From: a virus
Taxonomy: Duplodnaviria; Heunggongvirae; Uroviricota; Caudoviricetes
Direction: 5' to 3' (one strand)
Virus record (IMG/VR): IMGVR_UViG_2609459800_000001
Length of the DNA stretch: 64,000 bases
A program made the position numbers and the translations under genes. The notes beneath the pieces are model-generated. The model was not told the origin of the DNA. It saw nothing but the letters and a program-made list of their open reading frames with translations, and ran no database searches. Below, piece after piece: positions 23,851 through 34,926 of this stretch (its first letter is position 1; every line of letters begins with the position of its first letter).

Positions 23851-25044
23851 GTGACCTGGGACGATCACAAGAAGAATTTTGCTCGCCTGGCGCGAGATGG
23901 TGGTTACACCATCGCACAGTATGCCGCCGAGTTTAATCTTAACCCTAATACCGCACGTCGTTATCTCCGTGCCTTCAAAGAAGACACCAGGACAGCGGAC
24001 AGCCGCAAGCCAAATAAGCCTGTCAGGAAACCACTAAAAAGCATGATCATTGATCACGCTAATGATCAACGTGCAGGTGATCACATTGTGGCTGAAATGG
24101 CTGAAAAACAAAGAGTTAATGCTGTTGTCAGTGCCGCACTCGAGAACGCGAAGCGCCAAAATAAGCGCATAAATGATCGTTCTGATGATCATGACGTGAT
24201 CACCCGCGCCCACCGGACCTTACGTGATCGCCTGGAACGCGACACCCTGGATGATGATGGTGAACGCTTTGAATTCGAAGTTGGCGATTACCTGATAGAT
24301 AACGTTGAAGCGCGGAAGGCCGCGCGCGCTATGTTGCGTCGGTCCGGGGCCGATGTTCTGGAAACCACTCTTCTGGAAAAGTCTCTTTCTCATCTCATTA
24401 TGCTGGAGAACGCCAGGGATACGTGTATTCGCCTGGTGCAGGAAATGCGCGATCAGCAAAAAGACGATGATGAAGGTACTCCGCCTGAATACCGTATCGC
24501 GAGCATGCTAAACAGCTGTTCCGCGCAGATAAGCAGTCTGATCAACACCATTTACAGCATCCGGAATAACTATCGAAAAGAAAGCCGGGAGGCGGAAAAG
24601 CACGCTTTATCTATGGGGCAAGCTGGCATTGTTAAGCTGGCATACGAACGAAAGCGTGAAAATAACTGGTCAGTGCTGGAAGCGGCTGAATTCATCGAGG
24701 CGCATGGAGGAAAAGTGCCTCCCCTGATGCTGGAGCAAATCAAAGCCGATCTGCGTGCTCCTAAGACCAATACCGATGATGAGGAAAACCAAACAGCATC
24801 TGGCGCTCCATCACTTGAAGATCTGGATAAAATCGCGCGAGAACGGGCCGCCAGCCGCCGCGCTGATGCCGCATTGTGGATTGAGCATCGTAGAGAAGAA
24901 ATTGCCGATATCGTCGATACAGGTGGTTATGGTGATGTCGATGCGGAAGGCATATCAAACGAAGCATGGCTTGAACAGGATCTGGACGAAGACGAGGAGG
25001 AAGACGAAGAAGTTACCCGCAAACTGTACGGGGATGATGATTAA
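23851..25044 (+). CDS. pacA: Terminase (pacase) subunit PacA
   Basis: 397 aa. [39 protein letters not shown]... matches P1 PacA, and the gene contains the pac site. Confidence 0.95.
24044..24202. other. pac: pac packaging site
   Basis: Four TGATCA hexamers (24044, 24051, 24063, 24078) and three TGATC(A/G) (24174, 24186, 24197) flank a ~90-bp core, the classic P1 pac layout with Dam sites. Confidence 0.9.
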
Positions 25045-26528
25045 TGGCCAGAAGTTGCGTAACGGACCCACGTTGGCGCGAGCTGGTGGCGCTATATCGT
25101 TATGACTGGATTGCGGCCGCTGATGTGTTGTTTGGGAAGACACCAACCTGGCAGCAGGATGAGATCATTGAGTCCACGCAGCAGGACGGCAGTTGGACAA
25201 GTGTGACCTCCGGCCATGGTACTGGTAAATCGGATATGACGAGTATCATTGCAATACTCTTCATCATGTTTTTCCCCGGCGCTCGCGTCATTCTGGTCGC
25301 TAACAAAAGACAGCAAGTCCTTGATGGTATTTTCAAATACATAAAGAGCAATTGGGCTACTGCTGTTAGCAGATTCCCGTGGTTGTCGAAGTATTTCATT
25401 CTTACAGAAACGTCTTTTTTTGAGGTGACTGGCAAGGGTGTTTGGACAATATTGATAAAGTCCTGTCGCCCCGGGAATGAGGAGGCGTTGGCTGGTGAAC
25501 ACGCCGATCATCTCTTGTATATCATCGACGAAGCGTCGGGTGTGAGTGATAAAGCATTCAGTGTGATAACAGGTGCGCTGACCGGTAAGGATAACCGTAT
25601 TCTGCTTCTTTCCCAGCCTACGCGACCTTCAGGCTATTTCTACGATTCACACCACAGACTAGCTATTCGCCCGGGAAATCCTGATGGATTGTTTACTGCG
25701 ATAATACTGAATAGTGAAGAATCTCCGCTTGTAGATGCAAAATTTATACGAGCAAAACTTGCGGAGTATGGCGGTCGTGATAACCCCATGTACATGATCA
25801 AAGTACGTGGTGAATTTCCCAAATCTCAAGATGGCTTTCTTCTTGGTCGTGATGAGGTTGAGCGGGCGACGCGGCGAAAGGTCAAGATTGCCAAAGGATG
25901 GGGCTGGGTTGCATGTGTTGACGTTGCTGGTGGCACAGGACGAGATAAGTCCGTTATTAATATCATGATGGTGTCCGGCCAGCGAAATAAACGCCGTGTA
26001 ATCAACTATCGTATGCTGGAATACACAGACGTTACAGAAACGCAGTTAGCCGCCAAGATTTTCGCAGAATGTAACCCAGAACGGTTCCCGAACATAACCA
26101 TAGCTATTGATGGCGATGGCTTGGGGAAATCGACGGCTGATCTAATGTACGAACGCTATGGCATTACCGTCCAGCGTATCCGCTGGGGTAAAAAGATGCA
26201 CAGCCGTGAAGATAAAAGCCTTTATTTCGATATGCGCGCTTTCGCGAATATTCAGGCGGCAGAAGCTGTAAAATCAGGGCGTATGAGGCTTGATAAGGGG
26301 GCTGCGACTATAGAGGAAGCATCAAAGATACCGGTAGGGATAAATTCCGCAGGTCAATGGAAGGTGATGTCAAAGGAAGATATGAAGAAAAAACTCAACC
26401 TGCACTCACCGGACCATTGGGATACATATTGTTTCGCTATGTTGGCGAACTATGTTCCCCAGGATGAAGTGCTTAGCGTCGAAGACGAAGCGCAGGTTGA
26501 TGAAGCTCTGTCATGGCTTAATGAATGA
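25044..26528 (+). CDS. pacB: Terminase large subunit PacB
   Basis: 494 aa with an ATGA overlap with pacA. It has Walker A-like SGHGTGKS and DEAS motifs. Confidence 0.9.
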
Positions 26529-26531
26529 ACA

Positions 26532-26548
26532 TTTGCTCTAATGAATTG
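26532..26548 (+). promoter_or_regulatory. C1 operator (variant) at the head of the immI-like module
   Basis: TTTGCTCTAATGAATTG has 1 mismatch in the core. Confidence 0.65.
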
Positions 26549-26679
26549 TGTTTTTTAACTACCGATGTTACATTGAACCTGACCTCTTGCGCCTTGAGGC
26601 ATTTTCGGTTTATGCTTATCAGGCACCTCATTAAAACGGGTGCCGGGATTGAGACCCCGGATAATGCAAAAGGCGACAC

Positions 26680-26702
26680 AGACGCCAAAAGCGTCTTTTT
26701 TT
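26680..26702 (+). terminator. Rho-independent terminator
   Basis: AGACGC-caaaa-GCGTCT plus T7. The outer GACACA/TGTGTC can extend the stem. Confidence 0.7.
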
Positions 26703-26744
26703 GTGTCATGCCATCGCACAGCCATACGTAGCGTTTAGCTCAGA

Positions 26745-26860
26745 GATCAATGGTAGTGCTGGCTGGGCTGCCGAAAGGCAGGCCGGTTCCCTTTTGCGCC
26801 GGTAGTCTCAACCCAGTCAGTGCTACCGCCATTGAGATTGAGACCTCACGCGGTAGCTCC
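26745..26860 (+). ncRNA. c4: c4-like structured antisense/regulatory RNA (boundaries approximate)
   Basis: A long interrupted helix (26747-26761 with 26818-26835) encloses a GAAA-tetraloop hairpin. An internal GTCTCAA is complementary to TTGAGAC copies at 26649 and 26838. It lies directly upstream of icd/ant, as in P1 immI. Confidence 0.45.
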
Positions 26861-26887
26861 TTAAATTAGCAAAAGGAGGCTGCCATT

Positions 26888-27109
26888 GTGGCTACTATCC
26901 CTACCCCAACTCATCCTGAATTTATCTGGCGCTTTTACTCCTGCCAGAAACGTCACTATCACTTCGTTATTGCACCGACAGAAGATGAGGCTCGCTCTCA
27001 GCTTCCGGATGCACCCTGTATTTTCTCTGCCCGCTTTTCTACCGATTCGCGCAATTCTCTCAGTTACTGGAGCCTCCCTGTTAACGCTTCTGCTCAGGAG
27101 GGACTATGA
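26888..27109 (+). CDS. icd: Icd-like cell-division inhibitor
   Basis: 73 aa with a GTG start after AAAAGGAGG. It has the ...FIWRFY...EDEARSQLP... pattern of Icd-like proteins and is translationally coupled (ATGA) to ant. Confidence 0.65.
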   Translation: MATIPTPTHPEFIWRFYSCQKRHYHFVIAPTEDEARSQLPDAPCIFSARFSTDSRNSLSYWSLPVNASAQEGL

Positions 27110-28218
27110 GAACGTCATTAGTCACCCGTGAAGAGATGATCGAGGCAATTGAACAGCACACTGCCTGTATCAGTACCAGGGATATACCGGGCGTTATTGC
27201 CAACTACTTCATGATCACCAAACAACTTTACCGGAGAAAGGACAAGAACTCGGTTCACCGCATTCTGCTAACCGATATCCGTGAATACCTGCTCGAACAG
27301 GGTCATCTGAATTACGCAACCGTCGCAGCCGAAGCACGCAAGGAGGCACACAGAATGAAAGCAACTAACGTTAAATCAGAAAAAATTTATGCACCTTCAG
27401 TTCAGGAATCGGAACTGGTGGTTGTTCAGAATCAGCCGGATGAAATTCCCGTTCTGGAATGGCAGGGAGTACGTGTCGTGACAACCGAAACTCTTGCTAG
27501 AGGGTATGGGGTCGATGAAGCCAATATTCGCAACAATTTGTCTCGCAACCTTGACCGCTTTGAAGAAGGTAAGCATTACTTTCTTCTAACTGGTTTAAAA
27601 TTAAGAGAATTTAAGAACAGAGTAACCGGAAGTTACTCTGTTGGTAAGAACGCCAGAAGCCTTACACTCTGGACAGAGCGCGGCGCTGCACGCATGTCTA
27701 AGATCGTGGACACAAATGAAGCATGGGCATTCTTTGAAAAACTGGAAGACAGCTACTTCCGGCAAAAAGAACAGCAACCGGTTGCAATCCCCCAAACATT
27801 ACCAGAAGCCCTACGCCTGGCTGCCGAACTGGCTGAACAAAAGCAGCTTCTGGAACAGAAAGCCCACCAGCTAAATCAGCAGCTGGTGGCCGCCGCTCCT
27901 AAGGTCGATTTTGCCGACCGGGTATCAGTAGCTAAAGGGATCCTGATTGGGAATTTTGCAAAGGTTGTTGGACTTAAGCAAAATGCGCTGTTTGCCTGGT
28001 TACGGGAGAACGGCATCCTGATAGCGTCCGGTGGACGTAAAAATGTGCCGTTCCAGCAGTACATTAACGCCGGGTATTTCACGGTGAAAGAAGTGGTGCT
28101 GGATGATGAAGATGGCTACCAGATACGGTTGACGCCTCAATTAACGGGTAAAGGCCAGCAGTGGTTGACGCGTAAACTGCTCGATGCTGGCTTGTTAAAA
28201 CCGGTGGCAGCTGAATAA
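27106..28218 (+). CDS. ant: Antirepressor (ORF6N + KilA-C/ANT domains)
   Basis: 370 aa. The central segment VLEWQGVRVVTTETLARGYG...HYFLLTG...LWTERGAARM is ORF6N-like. The C-terminal APKVDFADRV...FAKVVG...LFAWLRENGIL...GYF is an ANT/KilAC domain. Confidence 0.75.
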   Translation: MRTSLVTREEMIEAIEQHTACISTRDIPGVIANYFMITKQLYRRKDKNSVHRILLTDIREYLLEQGHLNYATVAAEARKEAHRMKATNVKSEKIYAPSVQESELVVVQNQPDEIPVLEWQGVRVVTTETLARGYGVDEANIRNNLSRNLDRFEEGKHYFLLTGLKLREFKNRVTGSYSVGKNARSLTLWTERGAARMSKIVDTNEAWAFFEKLEDSYFRQKEQQPVAIPQTLPEALRLAAELAEQKQLLEQKAHQLNQQLVAAAPKVDFADRVSVAKGILIGNFAKVVGLKQNALFAWLRENGILIASGGRKNVPFQQYINAGYFTVKEVVLDDEDGYQIRLTPQLTGKGQQWLTRKLLDAGLLKPVAAE

Positions 28219-28225
28219 TGGAAGA

Positions 28226-28247
28226 ATGCCCGGTTGATGCCGGGCAT
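28226..28247. terminator. Bidirectional terminator between the convergent ant and c1 genes
   Basis: ATGCCCGG-ttgatg-CCGGGCAT hairpin. Confidence 0.7.
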
Positions 28248-28250
28248 AAT

Positions 28251-33148: not shown

Positions 33149-34134
33149 TTTTCAGTTTCTTTACCTGCCGGAATATTGCCTGCCGGCGTTCCGTTAAATG
33201 TTTTTCGCCATTCACTGGGACTGACTCCCATCCGCTGCCGGAATATCTGCCGGAAAGTAATGGTGGACTGAAAGCCTGCCAGTTCGGCAACCCGCTCCAC
33301 TGCAATATCTGTACTTTCCAGCAGTTCCTGACTCCGCCGGAGACGCTCTGTGGTGATCCACTCCCAGACCGTCATTCCTGTGGCCGAATGAAAATGGCGT
33401 GTAAGCGTTCTTCGGCTCATGGAGGCTAAATGGGCCAGAGTGTCAATATCATGTGGTAATCCCAGATTTGCGGACAGGTATTCCAGCAGCTGGTTTATGC
33501 GGTTATCGGACGTACTTTTGGGAATAAGCAGTTGCCGGTACTGTGCCTGTCCGCCTTCCCGGTAAGGAGGAGCAACCATCCGGCGGGCTATTTGATTAGC
33601 CGTATATCTGCCCAGGCGTTGCCGGATCACATGGAGACAACAGTCCAGTGCTGCGGCTGTACCGGCTGAGGTGATAATCCGCTCGTCCTCAACATAAAGC
33701 ACGTTCACGTCCAGATGAACCGCCGGGAAAAGCATCTGGAAATCCCGTTCAGCCTCCCAGTGCGTGGCCGCCCGTTTACCATCCAGCAGACCGGTGTAAG
33801 CCAGAACAAAACTCCCCAGGCACAGGCCCACCACCTGAGCTCCATTTTTCCAGGCTGCAACCAGGGCACTGAGCAGAGTTTCAGAAGGCCTTTCATGGAT
33901 GTGTTTCCAGAAAGGAATAATAACGATATCGGCCTCTGCCAGTGCATCAAGCCCGTATTCTGCCCTCATCGCCGTACCTTCAGCAGACCAGATAAGCCCG
34001 GGCTCTTCCGCACATACCCGGCGGCTGAAGAGAGCCTTCCCTTCCAGTATCTCCCCGAACAGGATTAGTGGAACGGAGACATGAAATGTACTGAACCCTT
34101 CGGTGATCACTATAGCGACAGTGATGGTGGACAT
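33145..34134 (-). CDS. GlxA-family transcriptional regulator (DJ-1/PfpI domain + AraC HTH)
   Basis: 329 aa. The N-terminal DJ-1-like domain has GLCLGSFVLA and the C-terminus has an AraC-type double HTH. Confidence 0.75.
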   Translation of the reverse strand: MSTITVAIVITEGFSTFHVSVPLILFGEILEGKALFSRRVCAEEPGLIWSAEGTAMRAEYGLDALAEADIVIIPFWKHIHERPSETLLSALVAAWKNGAQVVGLCLGSFVLAYTGLLDGKRAATHWEAERDFQMLFPAVHLDVNVLYVEDERIITSAGTAAALDCCLHVIRQRLGRYTANQIARRMVAPPYREGGQAQYRQLLIPKSTSDNRINQLLEYLSANLGLPHDIDTLAHLASMSRRTLTRHFHSATGMTVWEWITTERLRRSQELLESTDIAVERVAELAGFQSTITFRQIFRQRMGVSPSEWRKTFNGTPAGNIPAGKETEK

Positions 34135-34149
34135 GCCATGGCCTCCGGG

Positions 34150-34926
34150 TTAAATCGTAACTGATTCACCATCAGCAGGAACGGCAACTGACGCCTGGAT
34201 CTGGTTATCGCGGGCATATTCCAGCAGTTCCTGACGGGTCAGCAGACAGTGGTTTACGGCCTCCATGTGCGTTGCCACAATCAGTGCCTCTGGTACGATA
34301 CGATGGGCTTTCAGGACATCTTCCCTGCCGAAAATAATGGGGCCGAATCCGAGAACATGCGCCCAGCCCGTATTCATAATAACGACGCCAGGATTGAACC
34401 GACGTAAATTATCCTCTACAGCCTTGATCCAGATGGTATCCCCGACCAGATAGAGCGTTTTTTCGGACGGATGCTGGAAGACCACCCCACAGGCATCCCC
34501 AAGGATTGCTGCGAGTTGCGGGTTAGCATAGGCTTCGTCCGAACCATGCTGACAAACGGTTTTAATAAGTGAAATTTCGCCAAATGTGCTTTTGTCAGAC
34601 AGAATAACAAGGTTGCTGAAGCCCTGGGAACGCAGGATCTTTTCATCATGTTCATTCTGAACATAAATCAGTTTATCTTTCGGGATGTGCGCAACAGCCG
34701 CTTCATCCCAGTGGTCAGGGTGTGTGTGGGTGACAATAATGGCATCCACATCCAGCAGTACATCAAGGTCAAAAGGCAGCTCAGTCATCGGGATGCGGAT
34801 ATCTGACCGGGCCGTTCCTTCGAATCCCGGATAGGCTTCTTTTTTCGCAAGCATCGGATCGACAAGAAATTTTTTACCAGCGTAAGAAATGAGTTGTGTG
34901 GCGTTACGTACCTGGATGATCTTCAT
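34150..34926 (-). CDS. MBL-fold metallo-hydrolase
   Basis: 258 aa with the HxHxDH motif (VTHTHPDHW). Confidence 0.75.
   Translation of the reverse strand: MKIIQVRNATQLISYAGKKFLVDPMLAKKEAYPGFEGTARSDIRIPMTELPFDLDVLLDVDAIIVTHTHPDHWDEAAVAHIPKDKLIYVQNEHDEKILRSQGFSNLVILSDKSTFGEISLIKTVCQHGSDEAYANPQLAAILGDACGVVFQHPSEKTLYLVGDTIWIKAVEDNLRRFNPGVVIMNTGWAHVLGFGPIIFGREDVLKAHRIVPEALIVATHMEAVNHCLLTRQELLEYARDNQIQASVAVPADGESVTI

Follow-up and report, generated by a model that had tools for sequence, protein, structure and literature searches.

The stretch of DNA analysed here, 64,000 nucleotides (nt) long and referred to below as the window, comes from IMG/VR virus record IMGVR_UViG_2609459800_000001 (Caudoviricetes) and is part of a P1-like phage-plasmid. 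Its pacB and c1 genes are separated by 1722 bp (26529–28250), compared to 24 bp in P1, and this insert is very probably a second immunity operon of the immI type, complete and regulated by a c4 antisense RNA. Exactly two RNAs, C4 and isrK, were detected over the 64 kb with Rfam at curated thresholds, and both are located in the insert, ahead of an icd-like gene and an antirepressor gene (Table 1). The match to the C4 antisense RNA family (RF01695), at 26746–26833, extends over positions 1–87 of the 87 positions of the model with 75 bits (cut-off 45, E = 8e-13). Within the known family of phage c4 antisense RNAs, the element is complete and ordinary. An original prediction, made from the sequence alone, had correctly recognised this textbook phage antisense regulator as a c4-type RNA, and it is upheld by the full-length Rfam match, by a layout matching that of P1 immI, and by covariation.

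The insert is shared with the closest phage relatives of the window, namely JL22 (97.7% over 611 bp, with the RNA region 100% identical), RCS47 (95–96%) and vB_EcoM-673R5 (83%; 673R5 in the following). It has been mentioned in a paper on P1-like plasmids (PMC6906374), and the cassette is present at a coverage of at least 80% in 317 plasmid records of PLSDB, mostly from Escherichia coli. Because JL22, RCS47 and 673R5 also possess the canonical P1/P7 c4-icd-ant1/2 operon elsewhere, the insert represents a second immI. The canonical immI site falls outside the window, in which Rfam finds one C4 only.

The 88-nt core of the C4 RNA has a minimum free energy (MFE) of −46.4 kcal/mol (z = −5.6, with none of 200 shuffled sequences folding as well), and its MFE structure is that of the Rfam model. 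An outer stem of 16 contiguous bp (26752–67 with 26812–27) encloses a GAAA hairpin of 5 bp at 26768–81 (26768–72/26777–81), a second hairpin with a 12-nt loop (26782–86/26799–803) and an 8-nt single-stranded junction (26804–11), and the 3′ tail reads GCC. Compensatory changes are evident in 15 of the 22 predicted pairs in a set of 49 sequences, the stem of hairpin 2 being uninformative in this respect since it was fixed by the search pattern. Folding and covariation, which had been suggested as a check along with the original prediction, thus both speak for the structured RNA, although the helices first drawn were retained only in part. Of the helix proposed between 26747–61 and 26818–35, the 8-bp portion (26754–61/26818–25) lies inside the outer stem, whereas the 7-bp extension (26747–53/26829–35) is not part of the core stem; it is present in the fold of the long precursor, competes for G26752–53, and is conserved among the closest relatives only. 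Likewise, the GAAA hairpin assigned to GGGCTGCCGAAAGGCAGGCC (26765–84, correctly located) has a real centre of 5 bp and not 8 bp, since the GGG next to it forms part of the outer stem and the neighbouring GCC part of hairpin 2. Sequence hallmarks of RNase P processing, i.e. a conserved AU/GGU junction at the 5′ end, a long stem and a GCC(A) 3′ tail, are also apparent, and plausibly serve this enzyme by analogy with P1 c4, an RNase P substrate according to a passage of PMC5320573 that cites Hartmann 1995.

Two sets of complementary segments connect the RNA with its flanks. The first had been noted at the outset, with all its parts correctly placed: GTCTCAA at 26805–11 (a′), and ATTGAGACC, which has only two copies in the window (26648–56 and 26837–45), one on either side of the RNA. 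The underlying heptamer TTGAGAC has three copies in the whole window. The second set, an 8-nt complementarity of b′ (CCTTTTGC in DNA, unique in the window) with b1 and b2 (GCAAAAGG, with three window copies of which two are b1 and b2), had been overlooked, and it is this set that covers the ribosome-binding site. With the b′/b1/b2 set added to the a set, the full a1-b1 ... b′-a′ ... a2-b2 arrangement is obtained, in an order which fits antiparallel pairing. The predicted duplication of targets up- and downstream of the RNA within one transcript has therefore been traced to a1/b1 and a2/b2, which covary as described below. By a hand estimate, the chance of finding both triple complementarities in the flanks is about 1e-6, and b′ duplexes between cognate partners are more stable, by about 6 kcal/mol, than non-cognate combinations (window compared with RCS47 and P1). 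The downstream copy of the a target does precede the icd ribosome-binding site, but not by the approx. 40 nt first given: it lies 27 nt from the Shine-Dalgarno sequence and 42 nt from the GTG at 26888. Directly before a2, an ATTGAG tandem repeat was noted (ATTGAG-ATTGAGACC, 26832–26845). Its first copy pairs with TCAAT at 26747–51, yielding the helix extension mentioned above in the precursor, and remains constant while a2 varies, loci L029 and L068 having ATTGAGATTGGAACC.

Pairing between antisense and targets is under selection, as is shown by close relatives, by distant relatives and, as a third independent line, by the compensatory helix changes given above. Between the window and RCS47, 15 differences were found in 381 nt. 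Six of them are concentrated in the 24 nt that make up b1, b′ and b2, where they compensate one another (hypergeometric P = 1e-4, taking only the clustering into account). All three sites have undergone concerted 2-nt changes, from GCAAAAGG/CCUUUUGC in the window to GUCAAAGG/CCUUUGAC in RCS47, and this natural triple switch fits selection on specificity. At the same locus, 673R5 has further a and b sequences, whose pairing is retained via G-U pairs. Four a′/b′ combinations (a′ GTCTCAA or GTTCCAA, b′ CCTTTTGC or CCTTTGAC) share one and the same 39-nt C4 scaffold in a set comprising the window C4 (26749–26840) and loci L001, L092, L029, L068, L107, L119, L002 and L011, and in every combination a1, a2, b1 and b2 match. 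Immunity specificity thus seems to be reassorted in a modular fashion. Among distant relatives, 69 distinct loop/junction variants were collected from IMG/VR by a permissive pattern search, in which 15 a′ heptamers and 22 loop sequences are represented. An exact complement of a′ is found on both sides in 65% of these variants, and 43% have b′ matches of 7 nt or more both upstream and downstream, as against 0% (a) and 0.5% (b) in cross-locus controls combining antisense and flanks from different loci (n = 4392).

The genes downstream of the RNA are those expected of an immI operon, and agree with the location ahead of icd and ant that had been predicted. The 73-aa Icd homologue is 80% identical to P1 Icd, and a Shine-Dalgarno sequence (AAGGAGG) is found 8 nt before its GTG start codon; Pfam gave no match for this open reading frame (ORF), nor for C1. 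The start codon is GTG in the window and ATG at the same position in RCS47, D6 and 673R5. The antirepressor, with Pfam domains ANT/KilAC (109 bits) and ORF6N (67 bits), is 57% identical overall to P1 Ant1, its ends being kept and its middle replaced. This protein is a mosaic, in which the N-terminal 85 and C-terminal 145 residues are P1 Ant1-like (approx. 90% for the C-terminus) and flank the ORF6N middle part.

Upstream of the C4 RNA, the second RNA detected by Rfam is an IsrK-family leader. It consists of hairpin 1, a hairpin 2 with stem CCGGG/CCCGG that carries a1 in its 8-nt loop, a linker with b1, and an intrinsic terminator (AGACGC-CAAAA-GCGTCT followed by a T run, 26680–26703). Its fold has a z-score of only −1.95. 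The gap between leader and C4 is 45 nt here; it ranges from 23 to 45 nt at nine further loci and amounts to 25 nt in the Salmonella prophage Gifsy-1 discussed below. The leader of P1 itself is described by another Rfam model, c4-a1b1 (RF03163), which also exceeds its threshold in L042, L058 and Gifsy-1. On the window leader this model reaches 22.3 bits, below its gathering threshold of 46.7, so that a P1-type identity was dropped and the leader was assigned to isrK. The matches to both models overlap in L058 and Gifsy-1, and the two models thus partly describe the same element.

A promoter for this leader was predicted by homology (TTGCGC-18-TATGCT-6-G26623). Its geometry is identical to that in D6 (TTGCGC-18-TATATT-6-G) and to that of the mapped IsrK promoter of Gifsy-1 (TTGACA-18-TATATT-6-A; PMC4825925), where the +1 position in the numbering of the paper is also the first position of the Rfam model. 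A consensus promoter scan was set aside, as it gave 2 matches where 1.9 are expected by chance; its sole plus-strand match near the RNA is at 26838–67, between a2 and b2. Further upstream, a C1-operator-like site ends 39 nt before the predicted −35 box, which is the spacing of Oc4 to the −35 box of P1c4 in P1. RCS47 and 673R5 have 15/17 matches at the same place. The site belongs to the inserted cassette, being absent at the pacB-c1 junction of P1 and in D6, which suggests that the second immI forms part of the C1 regulon. When the P1 C1 operator consensus was searched with up to 3 mismatches, 13 matches were found in the window (e.g. at 9887, 29661 and 48770) compared to 0.29 expected, consistent with a P1-type C1 regulon spread over the window.

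Table 1. Features of the pacB-c1 insert and its borders in the 64,000-nt window.
Feature	Position	Strand	Remarks
pacA	23851..25044
pacB	25044..26528
C1-operator-like site TTTGCTCTAATGAATTG	26532..26548	+	14/17 matches to consensus ATTGCTCTAATAAATTT; putative function
Predicted promoter	26587..26616	+	−35 TTGCGC (26587–92), 18-nt spacer, −10 TATGCT (26611–16); start near 26623
IsrK-family leader RNA	26623..26701	+	Rfam RF01394, 59 bits (cut-off 50), model positions 1–77 of 77
a1, upstream target/decoy heptamer UUGAGAC	26649..26655	+	in 8-nt loop of leader hairpin
b1, upstream target/decoy octamer GCAAAAGG	26666..26673	+	in single-stranded leader linker
Predicted mature C4 antisense RNA, ~79 nt	26752..26830	+	ends predicted from the annotated 77-nt P1 c4
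b′ CCUUUUGC (DNA CCTTTTGC)	26790..26797	+	in 12-nt loop of hairpin 2
a′ GUCUCAA	26805..26811	+	in 8-nt junction between hairpin 2 and outer stem
a2, downstream target heptamer UUGAGAC	26838..26844	+	7 nt past predicted C4 3′ end
b2 GCAAAAGG (26869–76) overlapping Shine-Dalgarno AAGGAGG (26873–79)	26869..26879	+	of icd-like gene
icd-like gene, 73 aa, GTG start	26888..27109	+	NCBIfam NF033153 phage_ICD_like, 49.8 bits
Antirepressor gene, 370 aa	27106..28218	+	start overlaps icd stop (ATGA)
Terminator-like hairpin ending the cassette	28226..28247	+	directly before 3′ end of c1
c1 repressor gene, 283 aa	28251..29102	−

The insert has the features of P1 immI in the same order and at similar spacing, i.e. 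operator, promoter, a1, b1, c4, a2, b2, icd and ant. As in P1/P7, the RNA adopts the three-helix fold of RF01695, in which hairpin 2 presents b′ in its loop and the junction contains a′; a1/b1 lie upstream and a2/b2 downstream, and b2 is on the icd ribosome-binding site. The icd gene is of equal length (73 aa) and overlaps ant, and the C1-operator-like site is equally spaced from the promoter. Distances in P1 and in the window are 14 and 17 nt from a1 to b1 (start to start), 3 and 7 nt between the C4 end and a2, 29 and 31 nt from a2 to b2 (start to start), and 10 and 11 nt between the end of b2 and the start codon, respectively. Despite this, P1 immI and the RNA part of the cassette gave no blastn match in either direction, and their kinship is visible only by covariance model and at the protein level. 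Recognition sequences also differ, with CUGUCAA (a′) and UCACUAAC (b′) in P1 as opposed to GUCUCAA and CCUUUUGC in the window, so the suggestion that an immunity specificity other than that of P1/P7 is represented was well founded. Other differences from P1 are the IsrK-type leader with its clear terminator, where the P1 leader matches c4-a1b1, the ORF6N middle domain of the antirepressor, and the location of the cassette in the pacB-c1 spacer, where in relatives it coexists with a canonical immI.

The immI-like region of phage D6 and D6-like plasmid prophages (NC_050154; PMC6799933) shows 96% identity to the window across leader, C4 and targets, shares both a′ and b′ with it, and is also followed by icd-like and ant genes. 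It is found in another genomic neighbourhood, with no C1-operator-like site upstream and with a different antirepressor. Homologues of c4 and icd, including a second copy, have already been noted in D6-like plasmids (PMC6799933). In Gifsy-1 (L126, NC_010392), Rfam places isrK and, 25 nt later, C4 (69 bits) at 34131–34316 on the minus strand, and the antirepressor gene anrP comes next. As in the window, a1 is in the loop of a leader hairpin, and an intrinsic terminator, a C4-family RNA and an antirepressor gene preceded by a2 and b2 follow. Unlike in the window, there is no icd, anrP coming directly next, and the recognition sequence is UUGGCGU. In the numbering of Hershko-Shalev et al. 2016, a1 corresponds to nt 26–32, C4 to 103–186 and a′ to 158–164; mapped in this numbering, the compensatory mutants G28A/C162U and G31A/C159U affect a1:a′ pairs. 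The C4-family RNA of Gifsy-1 coincides with the published “orf45”/STnc1160 region, and the AUG codons of “orf45” are located on the 5′ side of the outer stem of C4. IsrK is a short Hfq-binding RNA that activates downstream genes in trans, which is known for Gifsy-1 only (PMC4825925), and translation of anrP is activated more than 100-fold by short IsrK in trans (PMC4825925). The same authors note that the processed stable RNA STnc1160 is complementary to IsrK (PMC4825925). The CI RNA of satellite phage P4 is similar as well, being a processed antisense RNA that pairs with seqA and seqC up- and downstream in its own transcript and maintains immunity (PMC4825925). The likeness is one of description only; CI acts by premature transcription termination of replication genes and not by occlusion of a ribosome-binding site.

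Family membership, fold, complementarities and their co-evolution are established here computationally. On this basis, regulation of the operon may be pictured as follows, with expression, processing, repression and the decoy role modelled on P1 and Gifsy-1. Transcription would start from the promoter just upstream of 26623, and the first 79 nt of the transcript would form the IsrK-type leader, which would display a1 in a loop and b1 in the linker and end at the intrinsic terminator. Read-through transcripts would extend into the C4 RNA, icd and ant. The C4 RNA (approx. 26752–26830) would be excised from these, RNase P presumably cutting the 5′ end before GGU, by homology to P1. It would then expose b′ in the hairpin loop and a′ in the junction strand and pair with a2 and b2 on the mRNA, occluding the icd ribosome-binding site. 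Since b2 overlaps the icd Shine-Dalgarno sequence, icd would not be translated, and since ant is translationally coupled to icd (transcriptional polarity being involved as well in P1), the antirepressor would not be made and lysogeny would be kept. Repression of antirepressor synthesis in trans by c4, and its role in immunity specificity, are known from P1/P7 (PMC12197685, PMC5320573). The a1 and b1 segments, either in cis or on the short RNA ending at the terminator, are in all likelihood competitors for C4, and would thereby tune or relieve repression.

It is tempting to speculate that the IsrK-type leader represents a built-in anti-antisense RNA, with terminated a1/b1 transcripts titrating C4 and so switching on icd and ant, and that RCS47-type plasmids run two orthogonal c4 circuits with reshuffled a′/b′. 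We offer this extension tentatively, and would put its chances at slightly below even. In our own reading, the strong activation by IsrK in Gifsy-1 supports such a decoy or anti-antisense role of an a1/b1 leader. If true, this would assign a function to a1/b1, which are labelled “putative” in the P1 record, and combinatorial reshuffling of a′/b′ would give rise to new immunity types. Two literatures would also merge, IsrK/“orf45” of Gifsy-1 corresponding to an a1b1 leader plus C4 RNA.

Several points weigh against the interpretation of the insert as a c4-regulated operon. The duplex energies of a′ and b′ with their targets surpass those of mononucleotide shuffles by a modest margin, 10 and 22 of 1000 shuffles, respectively, attaining them; as this is only moderately significant, the case rests on covariation. 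The operator-like site has 3 mismatches, and the predicted promoter is a weak consensus match that was missed by the promoter scan. For Gifsy-1, the published mechanism is not c4-type antisense repression: the authors invoke alternative mRNA structures and coupled translation of an overlapping ORF, with no processed antisense RNA (PMC4825925), and constitutive expression of the downstream region failed to counteract IsrK (PMC4825925). A leader switch operating in cis only would likewise dispense with a processed, trans-acting C4, a1/b1 pairing with a′/b′ in a read-through transcript that would be translationally silent. Alternative structures of this kind are documented in Gifsy-1 (the “structure A/B” model, PMC4825925), whose leader-C4 arrangement is that of the window and whose published compensatory mutants map to a1:a′. 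Neither a2 nor b2 is required by such a switch, however, and yet both are conserved and covary as tightly as a1 and b1, with b2 always on the Shine-Dalgarno sequence, so that a switch confined to a1:a′ is disfavoured. Moreover, the P1 record lists c4 as an RNA of 77 nt, which is described in the literature as being cut from a longer transcript and targeting ant mRNA (PMC5320573, PMC12197685), Gifsy-1 also yields the stable processed species STnc1160, and leader and C4 fold separately in the MFE structure of the whole precursor. A switch in cis only is therefore considered improbable.

Still less probable is that the region functions through a small Ash/“orf45”-like protein, encoded by an ORF of 39 aa at 26750–26869 on the plus strand, with the RNA structure being incidental. 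This ORF has a marginal match to Pfam PF10554 Phage_ASH (29.1 bits, cut-off 26), “ash family protein” is the label given here by PGAP in plasmid records, the frame starting from a conserved AUGG continues beyond 80 codons without a stop in many of the lambdoid variants, and start-codon mutations of orf45 lower anrP activation in Gifsy-1 (PMC4825925). Yet, counted from the conserved AUG, the ORF may be as short as 14 codons (P1, as read by hand, being one such case) or exceed 80, and in several variants the stretch searched contains no AUGG. Substitutions are compensatory across helices, as is typical of RNA, and variable segments covary with non-coding flanks, a pattern that coding cannot explain. 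In addition, the 39-aa ORF has no match in NCBIfam and no convincing Shine-Dalgarno sequence before 26750, and the nucleotide sequence of orf45 is conserved while its amino-acid sequence varies (review, PMC12197685). The Phage_ASH family may itself consist in large part of C4 RNA genes in translation. As to the tRNA-like processing signal that the original prediction had read into a D-loop-like motif, TAGCTCAG (26736–43), the motif does resemble the D-arm consensus, and the founder of the family, P1 c4, is reported as an RNase P substrate in the passage of PMC5320573 already mentioned. It lies, however, outside the C4 model in the discarded 5′ spacer and is not kept in relatives, reading TAGCTCCG in RCS47 and TAGCTCCA in D6 and being deleted in 673R5. 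ARAGORN detected no tRNA, nor did Rfam give a tRNA match even at E ≤ 1, and a tRNA-like or degenerate tRNA signal was rejected as having next to no likelihood.

The c4-regulated second immI thus belongs to a family whose architecture and mechanism are already known: Rfam detects the copy outright, and there are precedents in Stx phages, APSE and D6-like plasmids. Some Stx-phage records annotate the isrK and C4 pair, and all APSE phages have been reported to carry both (PMC7313666). What is added here is modest, and comprises the b′/b1/b2 set, the identification of the pacB-c1 insert of RCS47-type plasmids as a complete second immI under c4 control that has a specificity of its own, the combinatorial a′/b′ variants occurring in nature, and the equivalence of IsrK with the a1/b1 leader. 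In the literature found, IsrK and c4 are treated as unrelated systems, and a 2025 review still lists them separately. Practical value lies in annotation. C4 RNA and leader are unannotated in the RCS47 and JL22 records, and are absent from the plasmid gene names of PLSDB, whose gene tables contain no RNA genes; the locus is labelled “hypothetical protein” or “ash family protein” instead. The JL22 paper has no text on immunity genes. P1-like phage-plasmids of this kind spread genes for extended-spectrum β-lactamases, with blaSHV-2 on RCS47 as one example. On JL22, the gene is blaCTX-M-55 (PMC9603915). A second, orthogonal antirepressor circuit would bear on induction of such phage-plasmids and on superinfection immunity, and the natural a′/b′ variants provide ready allele swaps for defining how few bases determine an immunity type.

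Two minor observations were made on the surroundings of these elements. A minus-strand ORF at 26518–26709, the sole minus-strand ORF included in the profile search, had no family match; the D6 record annotates a comparable minus-strand ORF (orf84), which is probably spurious. Two C4 modules are found 0.65–1.3 kb apart in some IMG/VR prophage contigs (L006, 6535–7379, and L032, approx. 9706–11072), with an isrK match preceding both modules in L006 and two copies differing in a′/b′ in L032.

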